From Octopus vulgaris (taxonomy: Eukaryota), in assembly GCA_951406725.2 (NCBI GenBank), contig OX597830.1, positions 62,868,001-62,932,000 on the forward strand: a stretch of DNA of 64,000 nucleotides, read 5' to 3'. This document shows, piece after piece, positions 25,202 to 61,062 of the stretch (positions are counted from its first letter, which is position 1; each line of letters opens with the position of its first letter). The notes beneath the pieces were generated by a model. The model searched no databases. It worked only from the letters and a program-made list of their open reading frames with translations, and had not been told where the DNA came from. Both the position numbers and the translations under genes were made by a program.

Positions 25202-25304
25202 ATGAGGTTTTCAAGACGTATTTTGCAACAATTCCGACAATACTTGGATCATTATTCCCAGTTCAACCCGTCCCCTCTTTCCATGAAACAGTTCATTGAC
25301 TTTG
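25202..25304 (+). CDS. PDK: Pyruvate dehydrogenase kinase, mitochondrial: first coding exon 1A
   Basis: MRFSRRILQQFRQYLDHYSQFNPSPLSMKQFIDF(G), near-identical to the vertebrate PDK motif YSRFSPSPLSMKQFLDFG. aaaATG context; donor TTTG|GTAAGT, phase 1, at the same position as vertebrate PDK intron 1. Confidence 0.93.
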
Positions 25305-25803
25305 GTAAGTACACCTAAACTCACTGCTTCACACGTACATATATAATTTATATATTTATCTTGATATGCAAATACACATAAGCATTCCCAGTATGCCTAC
25401 ACGTACGTACGTATGCAAAAGCTTCGCCCATAATTACAGCTTACTTAAACCGCTCACACGTACGCACAACTGCCCAGCCAGTCACCACCCCGTATACATT
25501 ATATTCTATATATATATATATTCTATTCTATATATATATAATTACACGTACACATACATACATGTCGTTTATATGCCTCTATAGCAAAATCAGGCGAGCT
25601 TCTACGTATACACAAGCCGCTCCGTTTTACACGCAACATACATACACATGCACATATTAAATCTAGCCACCCACACAGATACCCGATATCCATGTATGAC
25701 GGTAACAGCCATACATACGCTCTCATATCTGTCGTACGCATATATACACGCACGGATTTAGTCATAGATGGGCATTGTGTACACACACAGTCCTCAACGA
25801 TAA

Positions 25804-25840
<37 letters not shown>

Positions 25841-26690
25841 AACAAACACACACACATACACACACACACGCATACATACACACACACGCACATACACACA
25901 CATACATGCACGCACACACATACACACACACACGCACACGCACATTTCCAGCTACGTTCACATGTACACACACGCACTGATAATGTCTAAAGCGCTGCAT
26001 ACATTTACACGTTCGTGTGTTGCTACACTCAATCATGGATGTGTGTATACGCATATATTTATACCTGTATGGTTTCCATATTTATTTATGTACATAAACA
26101 TTTTGTTCTTTCTCTCTTTTCTTTTTGTTTTTCCTCGTATTTCGAACGAATGAAAACAGCCGCTTACTTTCGTTTTCATATATATAAGAAATTATATCTC
26201 TATATATAATATATTATAAACTTATTGTGCTTTTTCGGGTTTATGCCTTACCAATGATATATGTAGTATGTAAGTGCGTGTATGTTATGTGTTTGTATGT
26301 ATATGTGTGTGTGTAAATTGATGTATACATGTGTGTACGTGTATAGATAGTCATGTACTATGAAATATATACATATTGGATATTTTATCCGCTTTATACA
26401 TACACGTACGTACGTGTGTTTGTTTGTGTGTGTGTGTATCTTTGACTAAAATGAAATTCGAATGCGATTCCGCTGTAAAAATATGGTTGCCAACAAAATT
26501 ATTCCATCCCCAAAAATGCAAATTTATTTATTTGGCTGATTGGAAAGAAAGCCATTTAGCATTTCATGATCAGCACTGACTTCATTCGCAGAACGATTCT
26601 TTGATCTGCACCAACTTTTACCGTTTATTTGTTTTTTCTCTTCTGTATTATCCGTCTATTAATATAATCATCTATCTACTTTTCTGTCGC

Positions 26691-26728
<38 letters not shown>

Positions 26729-26789
26729 TTAACCTATTTGTCTATCACATTGAGCGCGTTTTTTCAACTCTGGAATACCTATGTATCTT

Positions 26790-27232
26790 TCAGACTGTCA
26801 ATCTATCTGTCTGTCTATCTTTCTGTCTATCTGTCTGTCTATCTTTCTGTCTGTCTATCTATCTGTCTATCTATCTGTCTGTCTATCTGTCTGTCTATCT
26901 TTCTGTCGATCTATCTGTCTATCTATCTGTCTGTCCATCTACCTATCTGTCTACCTATCTGTCTATCTATCTGTCTGTCTATCTTTCTGTCCATCTACCT
27001 ATCTGTCTATCTATCTGTCTATCTATCTGTCTGTCTATCTTTCTGTCGATCTATCTGTCTATCTATCTGTCTGTCCATCTACCTATCTGTCTACCTATCT
27101 GTCTATCTATCTGTCTGTCTATCTTTCTGTCCATCTACCTATCTGTCTATCTATCTGTCTATCTATCTGTCTGTCTATCTGTCGATCTATCTGTCTATCT
27201 ATCTATCTGTCTATCTTTCTGTCGACCTGTCT
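26790..27232. repeat. Compound (TCTA/TCTG)n array with higher-order periodicity
   Basis: Variant blocks such as atctttctgtc and ccatctacctatc recur. Confidence 0.9.
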
Positions 27233-27309
27233 AACCATCCGTCCCTACGCACGCACGTATGGACGTATCATGGACGGAGGAGACGCTTGTTAACTTGTTT
27301 AATATCGTT

Positions 27310-27906
27310 TGTAAAGTGTTTTTGCACCCTATAGCAATCATGACCGTATTGAGGTAGAAGAGGAGACGAATAAGCGCCTCAAAATCTCAGGCATCAAGTT
27401 TATTATTATTATTAGAGGTTAGAGAGGAGAGTGCTGTCTGATGGCAAGTTTTCTGAAAGGTGGGTGAATTGTGCAAGAAGGGCCAGTATGAATGGACCAA
27501 TTCTGAGGTTTCGCCTGTCATTGAAAAAAGGTATTATAAAAGGAGAAAGGGGCTCTCTACCCCGCTTTTGACCAGGCTCCTGTGGCTTTTATGGGTTTTT
27601 CCACTTAGTCTCTTTCGCTCTCATTACTTCAAAACTTACCGCAAGCCCATATGTAAAAAAATAAAAGTTTTTTACGGAAATCGACGGAAAGGTCTACTAC
27701 AAACGAAAGATTGCCGTTTCTTTTTTCGAAGCCTCCCTCTATTGGGAGTATTGTAAATTGTTGAATTTTTTCGTTGTTGTAAAGCTTGTTTACACGGACT
27801 TTTTGCTTTCGAAAAACGGACAAAACCTTTTGTAACCTTTCGTCCTGTTTTGTCCCTTTTATGTTTTCTAATCATGTTTGTCAGCCCTTTGTGGCCAATA
27901 AAAAGA

Positions 27907-27908
<2 letters not shown>
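27310..27908 (+). mobile_element. 3' end of a Tx1/L1-like LINE
   Basis: RLERRVLSDGKFSERWVNCAR-like C-terminus, then a UTR ending gccctttgtggccaataaaaagaa and (TTA)n. Confidence 0.5.
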
Positions 27909-27958
<50 letters not shown>

Positions 27959-28074
27959 GTTATTATAATTATATATATATATATTAGGTACTTTATATAT
28001 TATATATATATATATTATATATTATATATATTTTATATATATTATATATATATATATTTTTATATATTATAAAA

Positions 28075-28200
28075 TATATTACATATATATTATATAATAT
28101 ATACATATATATTATATAATATATACATATATATTATATAATATATACATATATATTATATAATACATACATATATATTATATAATATATACATATATAT
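28075..28200. repeat. 22-bp AT minisatellite (atatatacatatatattatata)n
   Basis: About five near-identical units. Confidence 0.85.
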
Positions 28201-28836
28201 ACATTATATGATTGATTGATTCTAGTTTCAGCTCATGAGCTGTGGCCATGCTGGGGCACCGCCATTTATATATATATTTTATTTATAGGTATATATATAT
28301 ATATATATATATATATTATGTATGTGTATTTATATACTTCCATATATTATGTACAACAATAACACCTGTAACAAAAACGGACAGTGATCTCTTTGGTGAA
28401 ATCAAGTCGTTAACCTTTGCTTTCTTTGTGTGTAAAGTTTCACTCGAAATTCCTCTTGATTCAATTTATGTTTACATGATTATTTACAGCACCACACACA
28501 CACACACACACACACATTCAGGGAGCAGGAGAGAAGGAGAGAGAGATGCACAATGCCCGTGTTATTTGTTATTTGTGTTGTTTGTTTGTCAACCAATAGA
28601 TATATCTGTTTATCACGCAATTGAATAGCTCGAATGAATGAATGAATACATATTATTATTATTATCATATATGCCCATCCTTATGTTTGTGTGTCGGGGA
28701 TGAGATGTGTCCGTGCGTGTGTTTGAGGAGAGGGGGGGACATTCAATCACAGCCGCCCGCTCTTTGTTAACGCGCTTGCGGTGGCCTCATTTGAACTCGT
28801 ACCGCCCGTTTGCACACGTTGTCAAATACCGAATTA

Positions 28837-29862
28837 ACACAAGTGCCCACCTCCACCCAGCGACTTTGTTGCTTCATAACTTCCATAAAAATGGATACTT
28901 TTTAATGAAATTCTCTACATTACCCTTCAGATAGTGTAGATTCCGATTATATCGGAATTTTTTGTAAAAAAGAAAAAAATTTGGCTGTGTGGTATGTAGC
29001 TTGCTTACCAACACCATGGTTCCGGGTTCATTCCCACTGCGTGGCACCTTGGGCAAGTGTCTTCTACAATAGCTTCGGGTCGACCAAAGCCTCGTGAATG
29101 GATTTGGTAGACAGAAACTGAAAGAAGCCCGTCGTATATATGTATGTGTGTGTATGTTTTTGTGTCTGTGTTTGTCCCCCCAACATCGCTTGACAACGGA
29201 TGCTGGTGTGTTTACGTCCCCGTATGGGCTTACAAAGAATAAGTCCTGGGGTCGATTTGCTCGACTAAAAGGCGGTACTCCAGCATGGCCGCAGTGAAAT
29301 GACTGAAACAAGTAAAAGAGTAAAGAGAGTGGGGAGAGGAGTTTTGGAGAATTCACACGAGTTAGCTTCGTTTCTTAATAACTTTCAGAAAAATTGATAA
29401 TTTGTAATGAAATTTTCAACAAGTATCTTCCAGGTTGTATAGATTACTATAATATCGGAATTTTATATGAAACAAAATCAGTGGACTTGTACACATACAT
29501 AATGGCACATATCTACAAAATGAAACTTGAAATTTCGGAAAAATTTTTTGATGTGTGTCAGTATGTATTTGTACGTTTTCACTTAAATTCTTATATAATT
29601 GTAATCTACACACTCTGAAAGGTGTTTGTAGCAGATTTCATCAAAAAAGTACTCATTTTTCTGAAAGTTATCGGGAAACAAACCGACTCGTGTGAATTTT
29701 CCGAAACTCCTCTTCCCCCACCTGCGGACTATTTTATTTCACTACAAATTCCGATATAATCGAAATTTTTACCACCTGAAGCGTATTTTGTAGAAAAATT
29801 CATTAAAAGATGTTTATTTTTCCAGAAGTTATGAGGAAACAAAGTCGGAGGCAAACTTGTGT
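28837..29862. mobile_element. Foldback-type non-autonomous DNA element with two nested inverted-repeat pairs, interrupted by a family A SINE (28982-29328)
   Basis: cgactttgttgcttcataacttc pairs with gaagttatgaggaaacaaagtcg; gtggggagaggagttttggagaattcacacgagt pairs with actcgtgtgaattttccgaaactcctcttccccca. Confidence 0.65.
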
Positions 29863-30232
29863 AGATATGCCCACAATTTGATTAATTTACACGGACACGA
29901 AATCACACTAAACAACACTTTCAAACTAAGAAAGGAGACTTAATGTAATGGATGTTGAGGTATTGGTGTTAGATACCCTTAAAAAGACAAAATGATCACG
30001 ATTGGAACACATTTTTGGTGGAAGGCTTAAGGATGACCTAGAATTAAATATCAAACATTTATATTAAGACGCTTTCCTCAGTGGCGAGCTGGCAGAATTA
30101 TTAATGCGCCGGACAAAATGTTTAATGGGTTTAGGTTCTGAGCTCAAATACCGCTGAAGTCGACTTTGCTTTTCGGGATCAATAAAATAAGTACCAGTTG
30201 AGCACTGGCGGGGTCGATGTATTCGATTAGAC

Positions 30233-30643
30233 GGATCTTTTCGGTTTGAACGGCAGTTTTTTTCTAGCGGTGTCATATGAAATTGTCACCCATAATTATG
30301 ACCCTAGTATCGATCTATTGTATTTCAATCTGTTTTAGGGTTAGGAGTGGGGGGGAAGGGTATCTTTTTTTCTTCAGAAATGTAAATAAACCGAATCTGT
30401 TTCTTAAACGAGGGACATATTCATACAGCACAGAATGTTTTTTAACTCAATGGACGTCATCGATTGGTTGAAATTGCAGAAATTTAAAATAAAAACCCAG
30501 CAAATATCTTACAAACTGTAGAATTTTCTCAATAAAGCCAAGAGAAAAAGATGTTTTAACACATTCTATCAGTATACGAAGTTTAAATTTTTTTAGTTAC
30601 CTAGAAATTATGTTAAAAACTGCCGTTCAAACCGAAAAGAACC
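30233..30643. mobile_element. Merlin-like MITE, inverted copy of 11524-11934, inserted in a family B SINE
   Basis: GGATCTTTTCGGTTTGAACGGCAG...CTGCCGTTCAAACCGAAAAGAACC, perfect TSD gattagac, internal ttagggttagg. Confidence 0.9.
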
Positions 30644-31042
30644 GATTAGACTCCTTTCACCAATATTTCAGGCCTTAGAAAGGAATCTCCCAGTAAACTT
30701 GTTGAATGGAGAATAAGAATTATAACATGGCCCTTTGCGTAGATGGGGGCCTTACTCTCACTCAGCTTTGCAGGTCTCATTTAGAAGAAAGGCACTTTTC
30801 ATTAGGTTTGTGATAGTTCTTCGCTTTGGGAATATTTGCACGCGATGATTACAACATTTTGTGAGATGATGATAATCGTGTGGCATGAGACAACCATTCG
30901 TCATTAGATTATAAATGACATACGTTTGCACGACACATATCAACTCTAAGCGTCTATAATTAAATATCAACCATACCATTCTACAAATTTACTCCGGAGC
31001 GACATAGTATTAACAATAATAATGTTTCTCACGCAAAAATAT

Positions 31043-31420
31043 TCTTTTCTACTCTAGGCACAAGGCCGACAGTTTTTGGGAGGTGGGGCAGTCTATTAGA
31101 TCGACCTCAGTACGCAACTGGTACTTAATTTATCGCCCGCGAAAGAATGAAAGGTAGAGTCGACCTCGGCGGAATTTGAACTCAGAATACCTATTTCTTT
31201 AATAACCCACAAGGGGCTAAACACAGAGGGGACAAAGACAGACAAACGGTTTAAGTCGATTACATCGACCCAGTGCGTAACTGGTACTTAATTTATCGAC
31301 CCCGAAATGATGAAAGGTAAAGTCGACCTCGGCAGAATTTGAACTCAGAACGTAATGCCAGACGAAATACGGCTACGCATTTCGCCCGGCGTGCTAACGT
31401 TTCTGCCAGCTCGCCGCCTT
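31043..31420 (-). mobile_element. Composite family B SINEs
   Basis: Reverse complement of the family B consensus with two tail variants. Confidence 0.75.
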
Positions 31421-31625
31421 TGCTGTACACAAAAATATTAACTACTAAATGATGTTGTTGGTTAGCCATTAATTAACTTTAAACGAGCTGACCTAGGATC
31501 AAAGGGTAAGAGAAAAATAAGCGGAAACGATTTCAGCTGCGGGTGTTTATACCGGAGGGGCTTCTCTTAAACGTTTCAAGTTAAGGTATACCCACATGCA
31601 AGGGTTGATTTTTGTAGTTTTTGAA

Positions 31626-31688
<63 letters not shown>

Positions 31689-31689
31689 A

Positions 31690-31938
31690 ATAAATGTTCC
31701 TTCTCGATCCATGCCAGGCTCATAAGGGCCAGTTTCCCGGTTTCAGTGGCGTAGAAATTCCCCACTTGGATGGGACACCGATCCGTCGCAGGATTACTTG
31801 TTTTTGCCAGCTGAGTGGACTGGAGCAACGTGAAAATGAAGTGTTTTGCCCAAGAACACAACGCATCGCCCGGTCCAGGAATCGAAACCACAACCTTACG
31901 ATCATGTGTTCAACACCCTAACCACTAAGCCACGCGCC
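31690..31938 (-). mobile_element. Family C SINE
   Basis: Reverse complement of ggcgcgtggcttagtggttagggtgttgaacacatgatcgtaagg...tttcgattcc. Confidence 0.75.
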
Positions 31939-34266
31939 TACACACACACACATTATTTTATTTGTTTCAGTCTTTGGATTGGACTGTGGGCATGCTGAAG
32001 TGCCGCCTTGAAGAAATCGACCTCAGTACTTATTTTCAAGCCTGGTCCTTATTCTATCGGTCTCTTTTGCTGAACCGCTAATTTATGAGGACGTAAACAC
32101 ACCAACACCTGTTGCCAAGCAGTGGTGGGGCACACACCCGGTAGTGTGTGTATGTATGTAGTTGTAAACTTGCCCCTGTAACGTCCCCTCTTCCCTCTGT
32201 TACCCTTGTAGCAACAATATTCGCCGAATACTTAGTGTTTGAGTTTGTTTGTGTCATACACTCCTGGTTTCTTAACACTCACTCCCACCCTTGTCCAATT
32301 CACTTTTGGTCTTTTAAAATTTCCGTAAAAAATAGTTTAGGCCTCATTGGTTCTAACAGTTACTGTTTTCTTAGTGACTGAATTAGAAGTTGTCAACTGC
32401 CTTGTTACGTTGGCGAAGTCGATTTTGCAGACTTTGGTGATCATTTGAAATGAAAGCATTGTTGGAGAGTGAAAAGGGTTCATTACTTCGCTTTTCTCAA
32501 CTCTTTTTTTATTTTAATTACCGAAAGTGAAAGTAGCTTGTTAATGTTTTCTTAAATTTACTTTATAGAGTTGTTTGGCAAAATCATTAAAGCATCAGCA
32601 AAATTGCTCTACGTTCTGAGTTCAAGTCCTGCGAAGTCAACATTGTCTTTTATCCTTCCTGGATCGATAAAAGTGTTCTGGGGTCGATATAATCAACTGT
32701 TCCCATCCCTCTGATTTTCTGGGCTAGGACCTATGTATATAAGAAACTATTATTAAATGCACATTATTTTTGCCGTCACCCAGACAAAATATATGATGTG
32801 TGCGCAGGGACGAAACTATTTTGTACACATTCGTTCAGTACTCGAGCACCATTGAGCTGTGGAGTTTTATTGTGGTTTTTAAGAAGGGTCCAGCGAGACG
32901 GGCTGAATCCATGGTGAATGTCGTTCCGTTGCTTTCTTTAGCCAGGAAAATCAGCCAGTTTTCTTCTGCCTGGCGATTCTGGAGAAAGCGGTTGTATGGC
33001 GGGCGTTATTCAGAAATGAGTATAGACATCTTCTTCTTCATCTAAGCCTTCCCGGTTTTTTGTCAAAGTACTACTGGAGAGGTGGGTAAGGATGGAGAGG
33101 GAGCTGCTGCCCTCATGTTGATTTGTTTGAAAGATGAGAGTGTAGAGTGTGACTCGAGTAAGTGTGCCTATTTTTAACATACGCTTGTCGGCTGGAGAAT
33201 GGGTGTGAGGGGAGAGTCCTTACCCATGTCAGTCTGGGAAATCCTGGATCTATGAGGGTTCCCAGGTTAGCTCTAAGTAGCTGTCTCCCTTATAAGAGTC
33301 CCTTTTTCTTTCTTTCTTGGTGATAACGTGAGAATGCTTAACGGTAATTCTTCAGCTCTTGACGTTCTAAGATCAAATTTTGACGAGGTTGACTTTTGAT
33401 GAAATAAGTACCAGTTAAATACTGGGGTCAAATTTCAGCGTTTGTGCCTAAAGTGGAAATGATTATTTGTTGTAGCTTTGGTAGACGGAAACGATGTTCG
33501 AGACCATCCTAGAAATTGTGTGTGCGTGTACGCATGAGTCAGTGTTTGTCCCTCTACCACTTGACACGTCCCTGGTTTGATTACATCCCTGTAACTTAGC
33601 AGTTCGGCAAAACAGACCGATAGAATAAGTAACAAACTAAAAAATTTTTTTTAAAAGGACTGCTGTTGATTCGTTCGACTTAAACCCTTCAAGGCCCCTG
33701 CATGGTCGCAGTATAATGACTGAGACGAGTAAAAGATAATGGATAAACGAATATATTCGAGATTACATTATTGAAAGGGTTATTTTTCGTCTTGAAGATC
33801 GTAGGGTGTTATTTTGAGTGGTTATTTAACTACTATTTCTAGTACGTCGAGCGCCTACGGAGAGAGAGATAGAGAGAGAGAGAAGGGGAGGGAGAGGGGC
33901 TTTAGTTACTTCGTTGACAGTTGCACCAAAAAACACGAACCTGCCTCCACCACACACACACTTTCCATGTTGCAACTCCTGGTTTCCTCTCCCTCTTCTA
34001 TTTCACATGAAACAATGGAAATTTCCGTTGCAAGAGTCGTTGAGACGATGAACGTAATAAAGTCCACAAGAAGAAAAAGAACAAGAAAATTGTAGGCAAA
34101 ATTTAAAGCAATAACAAATTCACAATTACTGCCGAGGAAAATGTCACCTTTAATTGAAATACCACGAATAAAATAGTTGAAGTTCTAAAAAATATGTTAT
34201 GTAATTTTGTTAAGTGACAACAAGATGTGACTTGTACGCAATGACTACACGGTTTATATAACATGT

Positions 34267-34449
34267 TTATTTCGTCCGCCGCTGCATTCTGAGTTCAAAT
34301 TCCGCCGAGGTCGACTTTGCCTTTCATCCTTTCGGGGTCGATAAATTAAGTACCAGTTACGCACTGGGGTCGATGTAATCGACTTAATCCGTTTGTCTGT
34401 CCTTGTTCGTCCCCTCTGTGTTTAGCCCCTTGTGGGCAATAAAGAAATA
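34267..34449 (+). mobile_element. 5'-truncated family B SINE with 16-bp TSD
   Basis: TSD ggtttatataacatgt at 34251-34266 and 34450-34465. Confidence 0.85.
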
Positions 34450-34507
34450 GGTTTATATAACATGTATGCGAGAACAAAGAAAAGAAGAAAAGAAAAAACT
34501 CGAGAAA

Positions 34508-34960
34508 GGCGCAGGCGTGGCTGTGTGTTAAGAAGTGTGGTTCCCAACTGTATGGTTCGGGGTTCAGTCCCATTGCGTGGCACCTTGGGCGCATTTCTTC
34601 TGCTACAGCCTCGGACGAACCAAAAGACTTGTTAGTAGTGGACTTGGTAGACGGAAACTGAAAAGAAGCTTGTCACATATATGCGCGCGCGCGTGTGTGT
34701 GTGTGTATGTGCCTTTGTATTTGCGTTTGCCCTCCAACAGACCGCTTGGCAACCAGTGTTGGTTTGTTTTCGTCCCTGTAACTTAGCGGTTCGGCAAAAG
34801 AACTGATAGAATAAGTTCCAGACTTACAAAAAGATTTAAAAAAAGAAAGAAAGAAAGACCCCCCCCCCCAAAAAAAAAAACTTCTGGGGTTGATTCATTC
34901 GACTAGGCGGTGCCCCAGCATGGCCGCAGTCCGATGACTGAATCAAGTAAAAGATAAAAG
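34508..34960 (+). mobile_element. Family A SINE
   Basis: ggcgcaggcgtggctgtgtg head through gactgaatcaagtaaaagataaaag tail. Confidence 0.8.
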
Positions 34961-35525
34961 AATTTTTTTTCTGCTCTAGGCACAAGGCCCGAAATCTTGG
35001 GCGGGAGCAGTCGATTCGATCGACCCCATTATGCAACTGGTACTTAATTTATCGACCCTGAAAGGGTGAAAGGCAAAGTCGACCTCGGCGGAATTTGAAC
35101 TCAGAACGTAAGCTAAGCATTTCGCCCGGCGTGCCAGTTTTTTTCTTTTTTTCCTGATTTCTGTTTTTCGAGGTCAACTTTGTTGTTCACCCCTGCGGTG
35201 GAAGGTCGGGTGGAATAAAATACCAGTCATGTACTAAGGCCGATGTAATCAGCTTAATCCCCATTCCGGCCAAAATTGCTGGCCTTGTGCTGAAATTTGA
35301 ACCCATTATCATGGTTGACCCAAAATATGAAGGCAGACAAAATGCCACTAAGCATTTCGCATGGCTGACGTGAATGTGGCGGCGAGCTGGTAGGATTCTT
35401 AGAGCGCGTCGGACAAAATGTTTAGCGGCATTTCGCATGGTTCTTTACTTTCTAAATTCGGTTCCTGCCGAAGTCGACTTTCGATTTCATCCTTTCGGGA
35501 TCGATAAAATTAAGTACCATTTGAG

Positions 35526-35619
35526 GGGTAAGGTAAACAATACGCAGACCACCCGTTTTCGGCGTTTAGGGTTAAGGTTACGCTGAAAACGGATGGTGTG
35601 CGTATTCTTTACCTCCGCC
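35526..35619. mobile_element. ~94-bp hairpin MITE with a telomeric-repeat loop, inserted in a family B SINE
   Basis: Arms aggtaaacaatacgcagaccacccgttttcggcgt / acgctgaaaacggatggtgtgcgtattctttacct, loop ttagggttaaggtt, direct repeat ccatttgag on both sides. Confidence 0.8.
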
Positions 35620-36037
35620 CCATTTGAGGTGGATTTAATCAGCTAACCGCCTCTTCTTAAAAGATTGCTGGCCTTGTGCCAAAATTTGAATCGATCATTG
35701 TGAAAGTGGCTCGTGCGCGTGTAGGCGAAATCCTGTATATGCATACATGTATGCATCTGTATCTAAGTATGTTTGTATGTATGTATAAGCAGGTGCTGTT
35801 TAGCCCCAGTTTAACCTTGATTGCTTGAGGACACCTATAACCAAAGGCATTTCAACCGTGACCATCCTGTCTTCATTCCCCGTGTGTATGTGTGTGAGGG
35901 TAAAAAGGGGGACCCCAAACCACATTATTTTATTTCTTTTTCTTCAGACTGCTTAGTGTTGTGATTTACGGGAGATTTGACTGTTATTTCTAGCTAGGTC
36001 TATTATTGACGAATGGGACCGCCTCACTGGCTTGCAG

Positions 36038-36068
<31 letters not shown>

Positions 36069-36438
36069 ACACATATGCATGCATACATGGCGCACTCTCT
36101 TGTTGACCACAGATATGGGTTCCGTAACTTCTTGTTGACAAACTGGACAGATGAATTGTTTATTGTGATCATATTGCTCAGTCTCTCCATCAAATCGACA
36201 TTGCCTATACAGGTAGGTGCGCTGTGTGCCACACGTCAGTTGTCGAAGTCATTGTAAGAGTAACAGATGGAGTGTTTGGCTCAAGAACACAACGTGCCGC
36301 TCGGCCCAGGAACTGAAACCACGATCCCCGGATTCTTTGTGCAACACGCTAACCATCCCCCCATATAACACACACACACACGCCTTAATCTTAATTTAAA
36401 CAACCGACTTGCTTTATGATAAGCACACATACACAATA

Positions 36439-49281: not shown

Positions 49282-50046
49282 GAATATATATATATATATA
49301 TATATATAAGTACTAGTTGCGTACTGGGATCGATCTAATCGATTGGCCCCTCCTTCTCCAAAAAGATTTTCGGGTTTTGTGCCTAGAGTAGAAAAGAATA
49401 ATAATTCTTAATAATTTAGCCACAAGGCCAACAGTTTTAAGAAAATAATCGCAACACTTGACAGGTACTTTATTTTACCGGCTCCGAAATGTATGAAAAG
49501 CGAAGTTGCCCTCGGCGAGAATTGAACTCGGAACAAAGAGTGCATTGAATTTTCTCCGGCATTAATAATGTATGTATTTTAGCACGTGTAAAAGAATCAA
49601 CCAATTTATTTACCATTTTGGGAAATTATGTTTTAGAATTTAAACTCTTGGGTGCCCTGAAGAGTGTAACAAGGTGGGGCTTTTTGATTTACAGGTAACA
49701 GTTCATTTGGCCGGCTTCTACATAATTTCTCCATCTACCTAGTTTTGTTCACAAGGCTTAGGAATGGCCCAAGGCTATAGTTAAAAAAAACAAAAACAAA
49801 AAAACTCTCCCTTAGACATCACGTATTGGGATTGAATCCGGGACCAGATGGTTGTGAAAGCTAACTTCTTAACCACTCAACTTTACAAATGTTTGACGTG
49901 TCCTTTCCTCGTTTTGAAACAGAGGAATATGATTTGAGAGAGATTTAACTGTTATTTCTAGTATGTCAGCGATAACATGAAAACGCGCTCCCTAGTTGGT
50001 GTTTGTCATTGTTTTTGATGTTAACGGTTGCTGATGTCTCTGTTAT

Positions 50047-50103
<57 letters not shown>

Positions 50104-50427
50104 CATACATACGCACATGCATGCATGCATGCATACATACATGCATGTATGCATGCATAGATAGATAGATAGATAGATAGATAGGTAGATAGATATATGG
50201 TGGTTGGCTGCTCCTTATGCAGAGTCTGGCAACCTCTTGTACTTAAATCTTAGATCCATCATGGCGTCTGATGTGGCTTTTTAAACCAGACAATGTTTTG
50301 TAAAGATACCCACATAGATTGCATGTCTGATTTGGACCACCAAATACACACACACAAACACAAAGTTGTTTACATCAATCATAGTCGTCATGTTTTATGA
50401 ATACTTAACATATTATATACCCATCTG

Positions 50428-50470
<43 letters not shown>

Positions 50471-50633
50471 GTCTGTCTGTCTGTCTGTCTGTCGATCTAT
50501 CTATCTGTCTGTCTGTCTGTCGATCTATCTATCTGTCTGTCTGTCGAATAATCTATGTAGCTCTCTATTTAACTGTCTGTCTATCTATCTTTGTCCCCTC
50601 TCTGTTCAGCCCTGTGTAGCTAATAAAGAAACA

Positions 50634-50684
<51 letters not shown>

Positions 50685-51391
50685 ATATCCATCCATCCGT
50701 ATCCAGCCATGTGTGTGCGCATGCGCGCATACATATCGACACATACGTTGTTAAGTGCATCGTTGTGTCTATCACGTGGTTATGTTTTTCTGGGTCTGTC
50801 GTCGTTGATGCGTTGGATGCTCTCTTTCCCCCTCATGTATTGTTGCTTAACCTAAATTGGTCCTGATTATACAAACCTATGTTCAAATGCATTTCAGCCT
50901 TGACCATACCGCCTTTTTATTTTTTCTATGTTCTGTGTATTCCGTCTCACTACACCCGATGCGTCTATCTTTTTTTTTTTTTAAAGACAGTGTGATGTAA
51001 TTGGATGGAGACTTAGCTGTTATTTCTAGCACGTCAAATGACCATCTGGAACAGTCGTAGGGTGGACCCCTAGAAGCATTCTGTGATTCAAAACCCCAGA
51101 TTTTTATAATCAAATATTATTAGGAATCTTATATTAAAAAGCATTTTTTGTATTGTAAAAGCATGGCGAATTTATTGCACTTAAACTTTAACAACAAAAT
51201 CTTATATGCTCTCCCCCTCCCGCAAGGGTTAGACAATAGGGTCTCCCTGTTGAGAAACACTGATCTTGACTCTATGGAGTTTTCTTAAGTGGCTCAACTG
51301 TGTGTGTGTGTGTGTATGTGTGTGTGTGTAGGTATTCTGTACTCAGATATGTAATTTTGTATTTATAACCCCAGTCCACTCTCTCCCTATC

Positions 51392-51434
<43 letters not shown>

Positions 51435-51439
51435 ATATG

Positions 51440-51498
<59 letters not shown>

Positions 51499-51517
51499 AT
51501 CTATCTATCTATATATG

Positions 51518-51558
<41 letters not shown>

Positions 51559-51956
51559 GTGTGTGTGTGTGTGCCTTCTCTCGCTGCGTAGACATGTGTG
51601 ATATGCGGCAGGTATTATTAATCAATCAGTAAGGATCGATCCCAGTGAGTAGTATCTTGATAATTAATGACTTTTACCGGAAACTGTGCGGAAGCCCCAT
51701 ATATGGATTGTACCTATAATTTAGAACACCAGTTTTATTCCACTCTCAACAGTTAGATGTTAGTTTACCTGGTAAGAAACAAAACAGTTACAAAAAGAAG
51801 AGGTGAAAGACAGGTTGGTTGATTTCTGTATGTTTGTTAGTATTTCTTAGTGTGTGTGTGTGTGTGTAATACATCTGTCTCTGACGATCATTCGGTACAA
51901 ATGTCCAGCTGGACGTGTCGAACAGGTGAACACTACATCGTTTTATTTATTTCTTT

Positions 51957-51992
51957 GGATCTTTTCTGTTTGATAGCAAACAGAAAAGATCC
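51957..51992. mobile_element. 36-bp TIR-only member of the GGATCTTTTC family
   Basis: GGATCTTTTCTGTTTG-atag-CAAACAGAAAAGATCC, TSD atttcttt/atctcttt (7/8). Confidence 0.75.
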
Positions 51993-51995
51993 ATC

Positions 51996-52378
51996 TCTTT
52001 TACTCTTTTACTTGTTTCAGTCATTTGACTGCGGCCATGCTGGAGCACCGCCTTTAGCCGAGCAAATCGACCCCGGGACTTATTCTTTTGTAAGCCCAGT
52101 ACTTATTCTATCGGTCCCTTTTGCCGAACCGCTAAGTAACGGGGACATAAACACACCAGCATCGGTTGTCAAGCGATGCTAGGGGGACAAACACAGACAC
52201 ACAAAAACACACATATACATATATACGACGGACTTCTTTCAGTTTCCGTCTACCAAATCCACTCACAAGGATTTGGTCGGCCCGAGGCTATAGTAGAAGA
52301 CACTTGCCCAAGGTGCCACGCAGTGGGACTGAACCCGGAACCATGTGGTTGGTAAACAAGCTACTTACCACACAGCCC
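51996..52378 (-). mobile_element. Family A SINE, young
   Basis: Near-consensus reverse complement. Confidence 0.85.
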
Positions 52379-54605
52379 ATTAAAAAAAAAAAAAAGAACT
52401 TTCGATTCCTGTGTTTCCAATAACGTAGATTACGATACAGTAAATACTTTTCAAATTTTTAATCCCCACCTCTTCAAGTTTTTGTTTTTAAACTCTTCTC
52501 AGAATAGTTTTTTTTGGGGGGTGGGGGTATACCACACGTATTTAAGAATATGGAGATTACGAGTCTGATTCCCCCCCCCCCCCAAATTATCAATGACAGT
52601 TTCTTACGATAATTTTTTTTTTCTTGAAATTTATGATTGTAAAACCAAAAGATGGTTTGAGTTTCAAGTCGACTTCGTCAAATTTGGATTCAAGACTTTT
52701 TGAGGCAGAACTTCCGTCTCGCGACGACAAAATGCGAAACCGTAATAGTGGATGGAATTGCATCATTGCTTGAACTCGAGTTTCCAGAATATCTACTAAT
52801 GGCGATCTTTGAGAATTTCAATAGATTCTTCCTACCAGAAACATGTTAAAATGGAGCCTTACTTACGCGCTTGGTTGGTGAATTCGAGTGACAATTTAGG
52901 ATATTTTTTAAATTCTTCTATTCTGACTGGCTTCTGTCATTGGATGGAATACGGTCACGCTGGAGCACCACCTTCAAAGGTTTAAGCCGATCGTATAGAG
53001 CTCTATCGCTTTTTTTTTCTTTTAGAATCTGGTTTAAAACGTCTTTTTGTCGAACAAGTTACGAGGTCGAAAATGAATGAGCGCCAACGAGGACACAAAC
53101 TATCAATTACTCATACACACACACACACACACATACATACATACATACATACATACATACATACATACATACAGACGAACAAATAAAATTTGAATTTTAA
53201 GCCCTTTTATAATGTAAATATTATCAATGTAACATACTGAAAATGTTAAACGCTTTTGAATTTTGAGGAACAAGTAATGAACAACACACACACACACACA
53301 CATTATGTAGATTGGGTTATCCAAGCTGTGGCCTCTTCAAGCACATCCTCCAATCCGTATGTAGAGATTGTATTTGTGTATTTGTGTGAGGTTTACATCA
53401 GAGTTGTAAGTTCTCGAAAATACTTTTTGCAGAGTAATTACACATCAAAACAATTTTGTAACTCCCATTAACAAATTAAACATCTGTAAATGGTGCCAAA
53501 AACATTCCCCAATCCCCTGTATTAAAGTGTGTGTGTATGTATGTATGTATATAGACACACACATATATATAGAGAGAGAGAAGTGTGTGTGTGTGTGTAT
53601 GTACATTATATATGTAGAGGGAGATAGACACGTTTATGTGCGTCTATCTGTATGTATGTATGCGTGTTGGTATATGTGTGTATATAAGGGGATGAGAACT
53701 ATAATTATGTGCATCTGGTTTTAGAAATGCATGGCACATTTTTAAATGACTATTGTCTGTACTTTGTACCAATTGCCAGAGTACAATTGCAAGCCATCAC
53801 TATTGTCAGACTGGCAATGACTTATATATATATATAAAGGTATTGTGTTAGGAAAGCGGGAGGGAGAGTAGACACTGCATTAGATATGGTTACACTAACC
53901 TTGGTATTAGTTTTGAGGCATTTTACTAGTTAGACATTGAAAACGGCGTTGTTGTCGTCCGTCTTGTGCTGGACTTTATTACAAGAAATCGGTGAAATAA
54001 ATATACGAATGTCTGTCCATCTCTTTTCATTCTCATATATATATATCAGATAGAGAGAGAGAGAGATCGAACATATATAGTTCGATGGTTTTTACGTACG
54101 AAAACATTGTAGAACTTAATATTCAGTTGAAGAGAAAGGAAGTTTGTACACACACACACACACATACACAGCCATCCGCCTTTCTCTCTCTCACACACAT
54201 ACACACCAACACTCAGCCATGTGTGTATCATGCTTAATGCAGATACATCCCGAAAAAAAAAAAAATTAACTGCGGTATTCGTCCAGCGGTAATATCCATT
54301 GTAGACGCGCTGTGTTAAAAAATGCAAGTATATTGACAACGGACGAAAATCGTCCGACAGTGGCTGATGAAAATGCTAAATGCGCATTTCTGCGTCTTTG
54401 AGCTTCGTCAATAGCATGTACTCTCTGCCAAACTCATGCTAAGACAAAATCCGTTGTTATTGATTTAGTGAAAACAGTTATCGATAAAATCACTGAGGTT
54501 GGAATTAGCCAACTGGCTGAGTAATAAATAATATCCGTTATGCGCAATAGATGCATGATTCACACGTGGCTACTTTAATCTAATACTGCCTCTGCTGCAT
54601 ATAAT

Positions 54606-54655
<50 letters not shown>

Positions 54656-55125
54656 TGTAATACCTTCGAAACACGCTGGAGTTGAACTAGGGACAGCTGA
54701 TGAAGGGGATTTTTCCTTGTATAGTTTGTCTTGTACTCTGTTTTTTTTCGTTTAGGTCCGTTCCCACGTTTGTTTTTACGTTTTCGTTTCTCGTTGAGTT
54801 CTGCGTCTAGTTGTGGTGTCCTGTACTCACGTGTATATATATTTATATATGCATGTATATATACATGTAGATGTAGGTACGTACATATATGTATGTATGT
54901 ATGCATATATTTTATTTATTACACTATTGTATGACTGAGCGCCCTCGCGTCGATTCGATTCGTTTTCGTTTCGTATCATCTCCTCCAAGTAAGTTTTGTT
55001 ATATATATATATAGGATAATAAAACAAATGGTAGCTTACTGGTAAAGTATGATTACTTTCACAGTGTTCGTTATGTATTTGGTTAATAGGAGACGGAAGA
55101 TGGAAGATACGAGAGTTTTTATTAA

Positions 55126-55229
55126 TCACAACAGCTGTTTCGACATGTCCAGCATCGATTCCTCACGGGTGGGATACTTAACAACTGGTTCAGGAGCATC
55201 TGACGATGCAGATGTGTCTCTTCGGGTGA
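55126..55229 (-). ncRNA. Type I hammerhead-like motif in a probable Penelope terminal-repeat remnant
   Basis: Minus strand TCAC [CCGAAGA] GACA..(long insert)..TGTC [GAAA] CAGCTG [TT] GTGA, followed by AATAAA. Palindromic stem III; U4 is C. Confidence 0.5.
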
Positions 55230-55633
55230 TAAACAGATACAACTCGTTGAAACAACAGTTCCGCAATCTATCTTCGCAGTTCTTGTGAAGAAAAGCAGCA
55301 AATTAAAGGACATAGCTTCGTTTATATAGAAGATCAACAATAAAATAATAAATGTAAAAAAAAAAAAAAACACGCAATACAGCGAAAAAAGTATTAAATA
55401 TAACTGTTAACGGATATGGATGTATAAACGCCCTCGCGTAGCTTGTATGATGCATGTACACTCACTCATACAAACAGCCACGAAGATGTAAGCGTACGTA
55501 CACGTGTGGTTTGGCGCACGTACGTTCACATTGCGAGTTAAATCGCCACTTGGTGTTTATACGAATGGTGACATTAAAGCTAAATTTAATTCCTCCATAC
55601 CTTAAGGTGGATTACGTTAACGGTTGCTCTTTG

Positions 55634-55900
55634 CAGGGCTGAGGAGTCAGAGTCGGAAACAATTAATGGATAGCTGGAGTTGGAGTCGGTAAAACTATAC
55701 CGACTCCGACTCACAGTATCTTTATTCTTTAATGTAAACCAGTTACAACATATAGGCCTACTCAAAGTACAAGCGTATGCATATGTCTTATGAGATATGT
55801 AGACCACAGTCACTTAATTACATAAAGAGGAGTGGGAGTCAGAGGTGCCAATAGTAGAGGAGTCAGAGTCGAAGTTTTTTGTTTCGACTCCACAGCCTTG
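55634..55900. mobile_element. hAT-type MITE with GGAGTC subterminal repeats
   Basis: cagggctgaggagtc...gactccacagccttg, degenerate TSD gctctttg/actcattg. Confidence 0.75.
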
Positions 55901-55994
55901 ACTCATTGTATTGGCTTCTTTATCCGAACCACTAAGTTTCCGGGATATAAACCAACCTCCACCGCTTGTCAAACAACAGTGGTCACGGTCACAC

Positions 55995-56045
<51 letters not shown>

Positions 56046-56750
56046 CAAACACATACAATAGATATATTAATTGGACAAATTTAGCTACTTCTCCGTAGAT
56101 TACAAAATTGAAAGAAATCGACGAACGACCTCAGTCGATTTCCGAATCATATTGGATTCTCATCTGAGGCGTCTTCGCGAACTTGACCAATTCCAGAGAC
56201 ACAGGCAGCCAATCTGTTTACATGCTCACCAAACCCAGTAGTTAGAGAAAACTTGGGCTACTAGTTTGCATAACGTAAGTTTTGACGGCTTCTTTCAGTT
56301 TCCGACTACCAAATTCACTCACAAGACTTTAGTCGTACCTGGGCCACAGTAAAAGAATGTAAGAGGCACCTGGACTCAGGGTGCCACACAGTGGCACTGA
56401 ACCCGAAACCACAGTGTTGGGAAGCAAACTTCTAACCACACAACCACGCCTGCACCTCAATTCGTTAACTTTCAAACATTCCATTGTGTTCGCTTTCTAT
56501 TTCAGCTGATATTGTTTTCTTACAGAAGAAACATGCGTTTTTTAAAGCAGTCTTTAGCAGGGCTGTTGTTGTTGTTGTTTGTGAAGTTGCTTCTGACGTA
56601 TATGATACGTCACATCATTAGAAAACGGGTAAACACATTGTTGATGGAGCAATTGATGTATGTGTATGCATAAAAATTCTTGACATTTGTAAGATAATTC
56701 TTAGAGATGTACTTTCTCAAGAAGGTCCAGAGTTTGCCAGCTGTACCGGT

Positions 56751-56799
<49 letters not shown>

Positions 56800-56804
<5 letters not shown>

Positions 56805-56975
56805 CAACTTTACAGAAAACAAAAGACGAAAACAGGTGAGGGAACAATAAGCAGGTGTATTAGTTTGACGCTCGGCAAGAATGGAAAAATCTTTTACGTT
56901 TCGAGCCTACGCTCTTCGACAGAAAGGATTGAATGGGGGCGGGGGTGAATAGAGAGAGAACGAGAAAACAAAACG
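56800..56975 (-). mobile_element. Penelope-like terminal-repeat fragment between (TA)n tracts, with a hammerhead-like core at 56891-56926
   Basis: Minus strand CTTT [CTGTCGA]A GAGC-gtag-GCTC [GAAA] CG [TA] AAAG. Confidence 0.55.
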
Positions 56976-57050
<75 letters not shown>

Positions 57051-57130
57051 GAGTGTATTTTACCTTGTTAACAATTAACACGGATAAATGAATGAATACT
57101 TGTTTAAACCTGCGTTAACTCCATTTTTTA

Positions 57131-57183
<53 letters not shown>

Positions 57184-57189
57184 CACCCT

Positions 57190-57560
57190 TTTACACGTTT
57201 CAGTCATTTGACTGCGGTCATGCCAGTCGAAGAAATCTACCCCAGATTTTATTCTTTATAAGCCTAGTGCTTATTCTATCGTTCTCTTTTGCCAAACAGC
57301 TAAGTTTCGGGGGACATAAACACACCAACATTGGTTATCAAGGTGTGTATGTATGGGGGGGGGGGGGGGGCAAACACAGACACACAGGTACACACACACA
57401 CATATACGACGGGCTTCTTTCAGTTTCCGTCTACCAAATCCACTCACAAGGCTTTGGTCGGCCCGAGGCTATATTAGATGACACTTGCCCAAGATGTCAC
57501 GCAGTGGGACTGAACCCTGAACCATGTAGTTGGGAAGCAAGCTTCTTCTCACATAGCCAC
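57190..57560 (-). mobile_element. Family A SINE
   Basis: Reverse-complement consensus match. Confidence 0.8.
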
Positions 57561-57594
57561 ACATTTTTCTCTCCGTTTATATATATATATATAT

Positions 57595-57670
<76 letters not shown>

Positions 57671-57780
57671 TTTTGCTTGTTTCAGCCGTGACCATCTCGC
57701 CTTTTTAGTTTGCGCAAGGAACTCGCTACCACTTTATCTCCAACGTGTACTTTTTCCATGACCGTATGAGGAGGAGGGGA

Positions 57781-57993
57781 GCTGGCTGAACCGTTAGCAC
57801 GCAGGGCGAAATGCTTAGCGGTATTTCGTCTGCCGCAACGTTCTGAGTTCAAATTCCGCCGAGGTCGACTTTGCCTTTCATCCTTTCGGGGTCGAAAGCA
57901 TAAAGTACCAGTTACACACTGGCGTCGATGTAATCGACTTAATTCCTTTGTCCTTGTTTGTCCTCTCTGTGTTTAGCCCCTTGTATGAAATAG
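57781..57993 (+). mobile_element. Family B SINE with TSD, inserted in an ancient repeat
   Basis: gtatgaggaggagggga repeated at 57764-57780 and 57994-58010. Confidence 0.8.
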
Positions 57994-58089
57994 GTATGAG
58001 GAGGAGGGGAGGGGGTTATTTGAGTAAGGTTCGACTGCTATTTCTAGCAAATGGAGTGACCACAAAGAAGCTCCCTAGTTGGTTCGTGT

Positions 58090-58418
58090 TACAGACGTTG
58101 ATGGCGGTGACGATGGAGATGGTGACGATGATGGTGGAGGTGGTGGTTGTGGTGACGAGGAAGTTGCCAATTGTTCTGTTGGTGTGATTGGTACAGGCTA
58201 TAGTATGTGTGTGGTGATGGTGAAGGTTGTAGTATCAAATAATAACGCCATGCAAGGGAGGTGGAGGTAGGGGGAGAGCGATGGCAACAATGTCAGCTGT
58301 TACTAGAGATAGTATAGGTGGTTGTTGTAGTGGTGGTGATGGTGGTGGTAGTAGTTGTGTTGTTGATAACAACATTGGCAAGCATGGAAGCGATGGCGGT
58401 GGTGGCGGCGGCAGCAGC

Positions 58419-58449
<31 letters not shown>

Positions 58450-59245
58450 TGGTATGAGGATCTCGGTAAGGGGTGGGTATTGTAAGTGGCGGTGGCGGTG
58501 GTGGTGTAAAGATGAAGGTAGGGTAGTGGTGATGGTGGTGGTGGTGGTGGTGGTGTTGTGTCGTGTAAGTATGAAGATGGGAGTTGATGATGATGAGGAG
58601 GATGAGGATGATGACAACGATTGTGGTGTTTGATAATGGTAGGTGTGTGGTGATGGTGGAGGTGTAATGATGAATGTAGTTGGGTGGTGGGACGGCAGTG
58701 GGGGGAGGTGTTCTGGCATAAACATGAAAATGGTAGGTGATGGTGATGATGGTGGTGGTGGTGGTGATGGTGGTGATGGTGGTGGTGGTGGTGATGGTGG
58801 TGGTGGTGGTGGTGGTGATGGCGTTGTAAGAATGAACGTGGTTGGGTGTCATCGCTGTTGTTGTTGTTGGTGGTGTGGTGTCAGCAATATCGGCGGCGGT
58901 GGTGGTGGTGGTGTAAGGATGGCAGTAAGAGGTGTGATATTAGATGGTGGTGGTGGTGGTGGTGGTGGTGGAACGGCGATGCTAACGGTGGCGATGGTGC
59001 GGCAGCGGTGGTGTGTATTGACAGCAGCGCTGGCAACCATTTAGATGGTGGTAGCGGTGGTGTGTTGTGGTATGACGATGATGATGATGATGATGGTGAG
59101 TGGTGGTGATGTCAGCGGTGGCGTGTTGTTTATAATAATGATGATGGTAGCGGCGGTGGTGGTGATGATGCAGGAAGCGATCTCCACCTCCACCATCACC
59201 GCCGCCGCCAAGGTGGTGAGGGTGGCTAATAGGTGAGGTGGGGGG
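58090..59245. repeat. (GGT/GAT/TAG)n G-rich low-complexity tract
   Basis: Trinucleotide mosaic, strongly G/T-skewed on the + strand. Confidence 0.9.
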
Positions 59246-59942
59246 TTGAGATATATTTCAGCACAAAAAGCTCTGCCTTGTCACATTGAAGTCTACTTTC
59301 CTTTAAAGAAACTTGCTAGAAAAGAAAGGGGGTGATAAAAACAACAACAACAAAAGCTATCACTATTTTCTTCTACTGCTACCTCAACCAAACAGAGAAA
59401 AAAAAAGGCCCTGCCGGCCCTTGAGACAGTGAGTTCGCACTTGACAGAGGATTTTCGCTTTGGCTGATTACCTTTTTTCGTCCAGGTGTGAAGAGATAAG
59501 GAAAAAAACAGACGTGTGTGTGTAAAATAGGAAAAAAACACAGCGAGTGAGTGTATGTGTGCGTGCGTGTGTGTGTGTGCGTGTGTATAAGATAGAGGAA
59601 GATAGATTAAGGGTTTGTACTGTGTTTATGTGTTGGCGTTTGTTGATGACTTTATAATTTACTTCGTTAATGATTTATTATTATTTTTTTTCTCCCGACC
59701 AAATTCCATCATTCTGCTGTTACCCTCTTTCAAGAATTAATTCACCGGAAAGAAAACAATCTTTTTATTTCACTCATTCATTCCAGGCCTAGTAGGAAGT
59801 TCGCCCTTTGCAACCCACACCTCTTTGACTGTCGGATCCTTTCCCTCGTTCACCTTTCATTCTCATAACAAAACCAAATTATTCCAGACCAAAATAATTC
59901 ATTCGTTAGTCACCAACAACATTTTAGTTTATTTATTCATTT

Positions 59943-59959
59943 AACTAGGTCAGAGGTTA
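59943..59959 (+). promoter_or_regulatory. Candidate nuclear-receptor element: AACT-AGGTCA-G-AGGTTA (PPRE-type DR1, overlapping a RORE/Rev-erb half-site)
   Basis: Matches the extended PPRE consensus AACT-AGGNCA-N-AGGTCA with one half-site mismatch, in unique sequence ~800 bp upstream of PDK exon 1B. Confidence 0.5.
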
Positions 59960-60640
59960 ACACAAAAAAAAAACCCCTCCAAAAAAACTCAGGTGAACGG
60001 GACCAACAGCAAAAAACACCGTCCCTCTTAAGACTAGAGGAAAATAATAATAATAATAATAATAAATAATTATTATTTTCTTAGGATTGGGTCATCTCTC
60101 ACACACACCCAAACAGATACTCGAACATATTGTTTTCATTTTGATATCTCTATTCGTACATAATTTCCGGTTTTACTCCCTTTTAAAATACGTCTCTATT
60201 TATTCGAATCAGCTGGGTTTTTCCGAAGCTGGTCACCGCTACAGAGCACATGGGCTCATCTTGAATTGACTAAACATTAATTATATACCTGCCTTGTTAA
60301 TTAGAACAGAGAGATAGACAAACGGACACGCAGGCAGACGAATAGATTAGGCAGGTACTTTGATAAAGATCATATATATATATATAAATCAGATAGTTTG
60401 TTGTGGTTTGTTATAGACTGGCAGTGAAGAAGTAAATGGACTGAGTGAAAGAGATAAATAGGAACAGAGTGAGCGAATGAGAGATAGAGAGAAAGAGATC
60501 GAATGAGCGATTGAGAGAGAGAGAGAGAGAGAGGCTGCTGCTGTCAGACGGAGATGATCGGATGAAAGAAAAAAGAAAAACAAACAAACCCACCTGTAAA
60601 AGGTAAGGGTAAGAACAAAAAAAACCTTACTACCACCATC

Positions 60641-60671
<31 letters not shown>

Positions 60672-60754
60672 GTGCCACCGGCACCATTAATAATAAATAT
60701 AAACAGTAACAACAGCGGCAAGGTTTGTTGCTTCGTGAGAAGAACAAAAACAAA

Positions 60755-60902
60755 ATGAAGTTAACTCGGATTCTGTTCACATATGCCCGGCGTATTGCCG
60801 CCGTAAAGAGTAAGAAATTCGTCGAATTTGATCCCGTCTTTGAGAGATATGCATCTTTTAATCCGTCCCCGCTGTCTTTGGAGAAGTTTATGGAATTCGG
60901 AG
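60755..60902 (+). CDS. PDK: Pyruvate dehydrogenase kinase, mitochondrial: second (alternative) first coding exon 1B
   Basis: MKLTRILFTYARRIAAVKSKKFVEFDPVFERYASFNPSPLSLEKFMEFG, caaaATG context, donor GGAG|GTAACG at 60903, phase 1 (49 codons + 1 nt). Confidence 0.88.
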
Positions 60903-61062
60903 GTAACGAGAATTCTTTTGTGTCTTTGAAAAAAAAATTGTATTACACACACACACACACGCAAATACACATACACACACACAAATGTGCGGCACCCCAC
61001 GATTTTGTTTTTTAATGAAAATTTTCACAAAATAACCTTCAGCTGGGGTAGATTCCGAGGTG

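Follow-up and report, generated by a model that had tools for sequence, protein, structure and literature searches.

The closest described counterparts of the locus treated here, the twin first coding exons (1A and 1B) of pyruvate dehydrogenase kinase (PDK) in a 64,000-nt stretch of the Octopus vulgaris genome (G000:C17:62868001-62932000, contig OX597830.1; hereafter the window), are the N-terminal tandem duplicated exon substitutions of human genes. According to the available text of the two sources, N-terminal events account for 39-40 of the 236 human substitutions (UHP regions; PMC8373072, PMC9741552). They share with the PDK pair a tandem 5' coding exon, homologous N-termini, one body and an old, conserved arrangement, and are attributed there to alternative promoters. 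Unlike the human events, however, the PDK pair is found in invertebrates and a cephalochordate, while the vertebrate PDK sequences examined show one type. The words PDK and pyruvate do not occur in the main texts of PMC8373072 and PMC9741552, and human-centred catalogues would miss the pair if vertebrates are without it.

Variable 5' exons on a constant body are also known from the chelicerate short Dscam and the vertebrate clustered protocadherins, as far as the accessible part of PMC4835542 describes them; these are many-cassette arrays for cell recognition, whereas the PDK pair consists of two short exons of a metabolic kinase. At the protein level, mammalian PDK1-4 (PDB 2q8f, 2btz, 1y8n, 2zkj) belong to the same family and have the same domain layout (PF10436 + PF02518). 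These isozymes differ in tissue and in their response to NADH/acetyl-CoA, as stated in the available text of PMC13151138. Mammals possess four PDK genes differing along their whole length, whereas octopus has one gene that swaps 34-49 N-terminal residues.

Automatic annotation already holds both octopus forms (CAI9735538.1/CAI9735539.1 of O. vulgaris; isoforms X1-X4 of O. sinensis, with the records XP_029646766.1, XP_029646767.1, XP_036366172.1 and XP_036366173.1), under names silent on exon homology, age and function. No description of twin PDK first exons was found in the literature searched, from which most subscription papers fell outside, and the parts of PMC12871377 and PMC12691039 that are available treat PDK as one gene product only. 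The PDK pair is real and old and belongs, apparently undescribed so far, to the N-terminal substitution class. It consists of two homologous exons, arranged in tandem on the same strand, with a shared body and conservation across species; unspliced 5' stretches precede both ATGs, and the junction with exon 2 is seen in contigs for 1B and comes from annotation and decapodiform proteins for 1A. The reading that we consider likely as a whole is that of a single PDK gene in which a shared 11-exon body is preceded by two homologous first coding exons, produced by an old tandem duplication and provided with separate promoters.

Two first coding exons and a single gene body

The features of the locus are listed in Table 1. 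Exon 1A comprises 103 nt from the ATG at 25202 and 1B 148 nt from the ATG at 60755, and both end in phase 1, with the strand, translations and donors that a previous sequence-only reading of the window had given. The 1A peptide retrieves PDK1-4 chains from the PDB, with 15 sequences listed and a best E of 3e-6, while the 1B peptide alone yields weak matches (12 of 13 being PDKs, best E 0.011); the Pfam scan of each exon peptide alone, both peptides being too short, returned no family. A hidden Markov model (HMM) built from 21 exon-1 peptides, octopus 1A and 1B among them, was run over the six frames of 264 kb. It recovered 1A (E 8e-16) and 1B (E 2e-13), the next match being a microsatellite frame (E 0.039), and no third exon-1 copy was found in the 264 kb.

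Table 1. Coordinates of the PDK exons and associated features (positions are those of the window)
Feature	Position	Strand	Remarks
PDK first coding exon 1A, canonical type	25202..25304	+	basic presequence-like start and HYSQFNPSPLSMKQFIDF core; phase 1
PDK first coding exon 1B, divergent type	60755..60902	+	longer presequence-like start and RYASFNPSPLSLEKFMEFG core; phase 1
Splice donor of 1A	25305..25310	+	GTAAGT
Splice donor of 1B	60903..60908	+	GTAACG; RNA-like contigs leave the genome here and continue with exon 2 letters
Likely 5' untranslated part of 1A transcripts	25000..25201	+	weak basis: sampled words in runs of guessed RNA status
5' untranslated part of 1B	60681..60754	+	contigs of three of four runs, without a joint; repeats further upstream hide the true start
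First part of the 23,032-nt intron to shared exon 2	60903..64000	+	continues beyond the window

The strong divergence of the two exons at the DNA level, noted in the sequence-only reading, is borne out by the alignment of 23 core codons, in which 10 residues and 39 of 69 bases are common to both. The same codon is used for three of these ten residues, the other seven showing synonymous changes, and the flanks have nothing in common but simple repeats. Hence, 1A and 1B represent an old duplicate and not a haplotig. The identity of the complete octopus 1A and 1B peptides amounts to 15/49. The previously estimated excess of about 14 residues in 1B proved to be 15, of which 14 precede the core and one is an extra Gly at the junction. 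The computed N-termini contain four basic and no acidic residues with a moment of 0.96 (1A), and seven basic and two acidic residues with a moment of 0.75 (1B); judging from charge and hydrophobic moment, both are basic and amphipathic and look like mitochondrial import signals.

A tblastn search with the full protein, covering the window plus 200 kb beyond it, detected 11 shared exons, extending from 83935 to about 160760 counted from the window start. Shared exon 2 (G000:C17:62951935-62952076) is located 23,032 nt past the 1B donor and 20 kb beyond the window, and is followed by ten further shared exons to about G000:C17:63028760. Neither exon 2 nor any later PDK exon was found by tblastn between 1A and 1B, in agreement with the sequence-only reading, and its proposal of one gene body with two homologous, in-phase first coding exons stands on the exon structure and a genome-wide search. 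The latter, performed with P0003, gave 12 matches, all on one stretch of the same contig (1A, too far diverged from the 1B query, does not appear among them), and the body behind 1A/1B is the sole PDK body found in this genome. P0003 carries both PF10436 (BCDHK_Adom3) and PF02518 (HATPase_c), and the exons match PF10436 above the cut-off. The protein stands nearer to PDK1-4 than to the family's other kinases: its PDB matches are PDK1-4 and the related records are named PDK.

A more distant gene with PF10436 resides at G000:C16:52231304-52237463, and we take it to be probably the branched-chain ketoacid dehydrogenase kinase (BCKDK). In the region of shared exon 4 (about G000:C17:62998062-62998136), O. 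sinensis isoforms X1 and X3 have five extra residues, which apparently stem from an acceptor 15 bases upstream.

A tandem paralogue or a haplotig, two of the outcomes that would have undone the proposal, was ruled out by the single body together with the absence of a long duplicated segment (264 kb and genome-wide search); no second set of exons 2 onward and no long near-identical duplicate is present near either exon. Given how weakly 1B alone matches known PDKs, it might still be argued that one of the exons is orphaned or a pseudo-exon, or that it was left over from a tandem paralogue or created by misassembly. With both exons conserved in cuttlefish, 1B spliced, and neither a second body nor a long duplicated segment found near either exon, this explanation is hardly credible.

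Transcripts and probable promoter choice

Transcript evidence was drawn from contigs of sequencing runs whose RNA status was guessed (14 of the 20 runs holding the words were guessed to be RNA; none is recorded as such). Contigs were compared over 60540-60944, one contig per run. Those of runs X5, X14 and X2 (three of four runs, from three studies) cover 60681-60905 and pass straight into 26 letters of exon 2, showing that the 23,032-nt intron is removed; the junction expected for 1B is thereby established. All three end some 30 letters past the start of exon 2, as would fit, we infer, a branch where a second 5' end joins that exon. Runs X5, X14 and X2 also hold 0.94-0.97 of the sampled 1A words, and of the words sampled from 25000-25320, a fraction of 0.97 is present in 11 runs taken to be RNA. 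Run X23, with no 1B contig and next to no 1A words, is uninformative. The contig depths on 1B (406, 212 and 9) are unusable for ranking expression. Compared with the genome, the X2 contig has three differences in the untranslated part of 1B and none in its 148 coding bases, these being small numbers. In the annotation, 1A forms the N-terminus of isoforms P0004 and P0005, and 1B that of P0003 and P0006. That both forms are real is practically certain.

Choice between 1A and 1B is very probably made at the level of promoters. According to the proposed mechanism, an old tandem duplication would have yielded 1A and 1B ahead of the shared 11-exon body, and each transcript would start at its own promoter; since neither exon seems to have an upstream acceptor in use, one first exon per transcript is to be expected. 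Both proteins would be imported into mitochondria and would phosphorylate the E1 component of pyruvate dehydrogenase (PDH) with the same catalytic domain. The two forms would differ in the time and place of their production, as well as in the first helix lining the lipoyl (E2-L2) channel. The most likely payoff would be two regulatory inputs on one kinase, and in the B form, docking of the lipoyl domain or the response to NADH/acetyl-CoA may be modestly retuned.

Alternatively, a non-coding first exon might be common to all transcripts, with 1A and 1B as mutually exclusive cassettes behind it and with splicing, not promoters, deciding between them. In keeping with this, the 1B contigs begin with 23-38 unplaced letters, which consist of repeats. 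However, the 1B contigs are unspliced for at least 74 bases upstream of the ATG, the region upstream of 1B is A-rich and without a pyrimidine tract, and of the words sampled from the 200 bases ahead of the 1A ATG, nearly all are present in RNA-like runs, so that such an arrangement appears improbable.

PDK is the main brake on pyruvate oxidation. If two promoters operate in molluscs and amphioxus, gene-level expression studies have summed two signals, and existing RNA-seq could be separated by first exon at once. The available text of PMC12871377 reports that PDK is induced by hypoxia in Aplysia.

A perfect palindrome resembling the cAMP response element (CRE), TGACGTCA, is situated at 25015-25022 of the window, overlapping a GCGTG core, 187 bases ahead of the 1A ATG. 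Its frequency in the window is not above chance (one found, 0.88 expected).

Distribution of the two forms among animals

Look-ups were made in 20 protein clusters besides the octopus one. In 16 of 19 A/B pairings, the two proteins match residue for residue over a stretch of 366-397 that reaches the exon 1/2 border. Among cephalopods, pairs were found in Octopus, Acanthosepion pharaonis and a second decapodiform, so that the search for both exons in other cephalopods had a positive outcome in cuttlefish; octopus and cuttlefish share 35/49 residues in 1B, 30/34 in 1A and 328/366 in the body. Other molluscs with a pair comprise a G-named and an L-named species, two Patella species, Biomphalaria glabrata and Bradybaena similaris, the last with two neighbouring locus tags. 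Outside molluscs, pairs occur in the amphioxus species Branchiostoma floridae, B. belcheri and B. lanceolatum. The shortened names were taken by us as Gigantopelta (G), Liolophura, a chiton (L), Haliotis (H) and P. vulgata. The body tree places the L-named protein in a mollusc-rich group, apart from gastropods and cephalopods, and this mollusc is probably a chiton. The reach of the pair is thus wider than the sequence-only reading had it: it is mollusc-wide, extends to amphioxus and is already present in automatic annotation.

Three of the 19 pairings failed, namely two cross-species cuttlefish pairings, which were mended by swapping partners, and one of Candidula. Candidula unifasciata has two PDK records (P0441 and P0187) with different bodies, both with B-type starts, which means that some invertebrates have PDK paralogues too. 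The suggestion that the exon pair stands in for the vertebrate paralogues consequently holds as an analogy only, there being a land snail with two PDK bodies and the exon pair being probably older than PDK1-4.

All six vertebrate and five arthropod exon-1 peptides that were scored are of the A type. No B form was seen in the clusters of spiders, of ticks and one arthropod-like cluster (7, 6, 13 and 5 members). Tapeworm (Taenia, Echinococcus) PDKs P0287, P0427 and P0428 have a B-like start in all three members of their cluster, among which no A form was seen. Only A was present among the records found for Argonauta and only B among those of H-named gastropods, which does not imply true absence of the other form. 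The matches listed contained no named bivalve, annelid, echinoderm or cnidarian PDK.

Lipoyl-pocket residues

Leu27, Gln31, Phe32, Phe35, Ser45 and Phe48 of PDK3 form a hydrophobic channel in the L2-binding region, according to the accessible portion of a docking paper that cites the crystal structure (PMC4551558). Four of these six residues (Leu27, Gln31, Phe32 and Phe35) are encoded by exon 1, and at positions 29-31 octopus 1B has LEK in place of MKQ. The markers that set the B type apart are L29 (14/14 mollusc B versus 0/9 mollusc A) and an E/D-K/R-Y/F-A-like start. Phe32 is present in 9/9 mollusc A and in 4/14 mollusc B peptides; the F32L replacement is found in 10 of the 14 mollusc B peptides and in amphioxus B, and not in cephalopods. 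The M/I-x-Q-F motif is kept in 237 of the 295 PDKs fetched, a vertebrate-rich set, which points to constraint on these positions.

Leu32 of PDK4, we assume, occupies the same position as Phe32 of PDK3. It has been linked to a reversed response to a lipoyl-site ligand, as far as the available text of PMC4551558 goes. Judged by these residues, a retuned docking or NADH/acetyl-CoA response would sooner be expected of the gastropod and amphioxus B forms, with their F32L, than of the cephalopod ones. The pair represents a natural experiment on the lipoyl-pocket helix, with two versions on an identical body that have stayed separate at least since cephalopods and gastropods split.

Age of the duplication

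With their own genus left out, the mollusc peptides (9 A and 14 B) scored with their own type without exception. Since the peptides sort by type and not by species, octopus 1B and gastropod B are most likely orthologues, and the duplication would accordingly predate the cephalopod-gastropod split, an origin that we regard as highly probable. If the L-named species is a chiton, the duplication would be older than the mollusc root. Beyond molluscs, type scores were -22 and -24 for amphioxus A (clearly A) and +9.5 and +2.0 for amphioxus B (weakly B), as against +11 to +32 for mollusc B, while the tapeworm PDK (+24.5) and proteins grouping with deuterostomes (+15 to +19) were B-like. An exon tree was built from 22 columns and 38 rows, 11 of the 49 rows (seven unnamed representatives and four near-copies) being left out, with A/B labels assigned after the sequences had been seen. 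In the best tree, a branch with 99/100 support sets all 17 B-like rows apart. By the approximately unbiased (AU) test, which has little power with so few columns, a duplication confined to molluscs was borderline rejected (p 0.0498), and amphioxus A and B as one clade were not rejected (p 0.146).

Among pattern matches in distant PDK relatives, a few of which matches are spurious, L29 is present in 25 of 53 and L/M32 in 34 of 53. B-type states may therefore be ancestral, which fits an old split and independent reversion alike, and a single bilaterian origin has about even odds. On the view that the mollusc and amphioxus pairs are independent, the B forms would be alike because a relaxed copy reverts to ancestral L29, K31 and L32. 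The weak leaning of amphioxus B towards mollusc B, without the F-E-K-Y-A start, accords with this, as do the survival of the amphioxus clade in the AU test, the occurrence of L29 and L/M32 in distant relatives, and the losses in vertebrates and arthropods that a single origin requires. Parallel exon duplications are, moreover, common in orthologous genes (27 human-fly families in the available text of PMC9741552). The clustering of the 17 B-like rows, the borderline rejection of a mollusc-only duplication, the B-like tapeworm and deuterostome-grouping proteins, and the extra residues ahead of the junction in amphioxus, cephalopod, limpet and snail B forms all speak against it, and we place independent origin slightly below an even chance.

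A fuller scenario, tentative and in our view rather unlikely, would have the bilaterian ancestor equipped with two PDK isozymes from one gene with twin first exons. The B form would keep the older lipoyl-pocket helix (L29, often L32) and read the E2 lipoyl domain differently; molluscs and amphioxus would have kept both forms, vertebrates and arthropods A only and tapeworms perhaps B only, and mammals would have regained L32 in PDK4. The accessible text of PMC8373072 counts 21 exon substitutions older than the protostome-deuterostome split. Should the amphioxus pair derive from the same event, there would be one more.

Weighing of the proposed reading

Several points tell against the proposal of an old, promoter-driven exon pair with different pockets. 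The transcript evidence consists of contigs with guessed RNA status, whose depth is no measure of expression; repeats obscure the 5' end of 1B and transcription starts are unmapped, and the junction of 1A with exon 2 rests on annotation and on full-length A-type decapodiform proteins from Logan contigs. Outside octopus, the shared bodies were read from protein records, not from gene structures or exon order. The AU test fails to reject a cephalopod-only duplication (p 0.11, 22 columns), against which the best tree and the type scores nevertheless speak. As regards the pocket, L27, F32 and F35 are kept in octopus and cuttlefish 1B, Q31K is no B marker (K31 in 2/9 mollusc A, Q31 in 6/14 mollusc B), and F32L also occurs in one arthropod-like cluster of A type (P0060).

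Because the hydrophobic residues are kept and K31 is found in A exons as well, the pockets of the two octopus forms may function in the same way. Hence, of the swap of pocket residues put forward in the sequence-only reading, the location of four of the six PDK3 channel residues in exon 1 holds, while the Q-to-K change is not specific to B. A biochemical difference between the octopus forms, as far as residues allow a prediction, may exist, at somewhat less than an even chance.

The exons might then matter only as two promoters, perhaps with two import signals, the mature kinases being alike and the core differences drift. Besides the three hydrophobic channel residues kept in cephalopod 1B, the frequency of L29 and L/M32 in distant relatives, where they may be neutral states, is in line with such an explanation. 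Drift is, however, opposed by the contrast between types at L29 and F32, by motifs that stay distinct across mollusc classes, and by the constraint to which the common M/I-x-Q-F motif points. We therefore treat the promoter-only explanation as a real possibility of the lesser kind, and keep to the exon pair with separate promoters and a possibly retuned B helix.

Other features of the window and of related PDK records

PDK isoforms of fly (P0254/P0257/P0259) and amphioxus (P0075/P0433) also vary in C-terminus or length. Their lengths are 413 versus 410 residues in fly, where X1 and X2 differ at the C-terminus, and 433 versus 409 in amphioxus, which suggests alternative last exons. Two Argiope proteins (P0149 and P0151) have about 290 extra N-terminal residues ahead of PDK; this extension presumably resembles acyl-CoA-binding protein, and the fusion is likely a merge of gene models.

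Within the window, open frames occur at 4784-5302 (+), 20093-20698 (-) and 22245-23294 (+). We take the first to be a GIY-YIG retroelement piece, the second a piece of a mariner-type transposase and the third a gag-like frame of a long interspersed nuclear element (LINE). The remaining long frames, judged by eye, resemble transposon remains and simple repeats.

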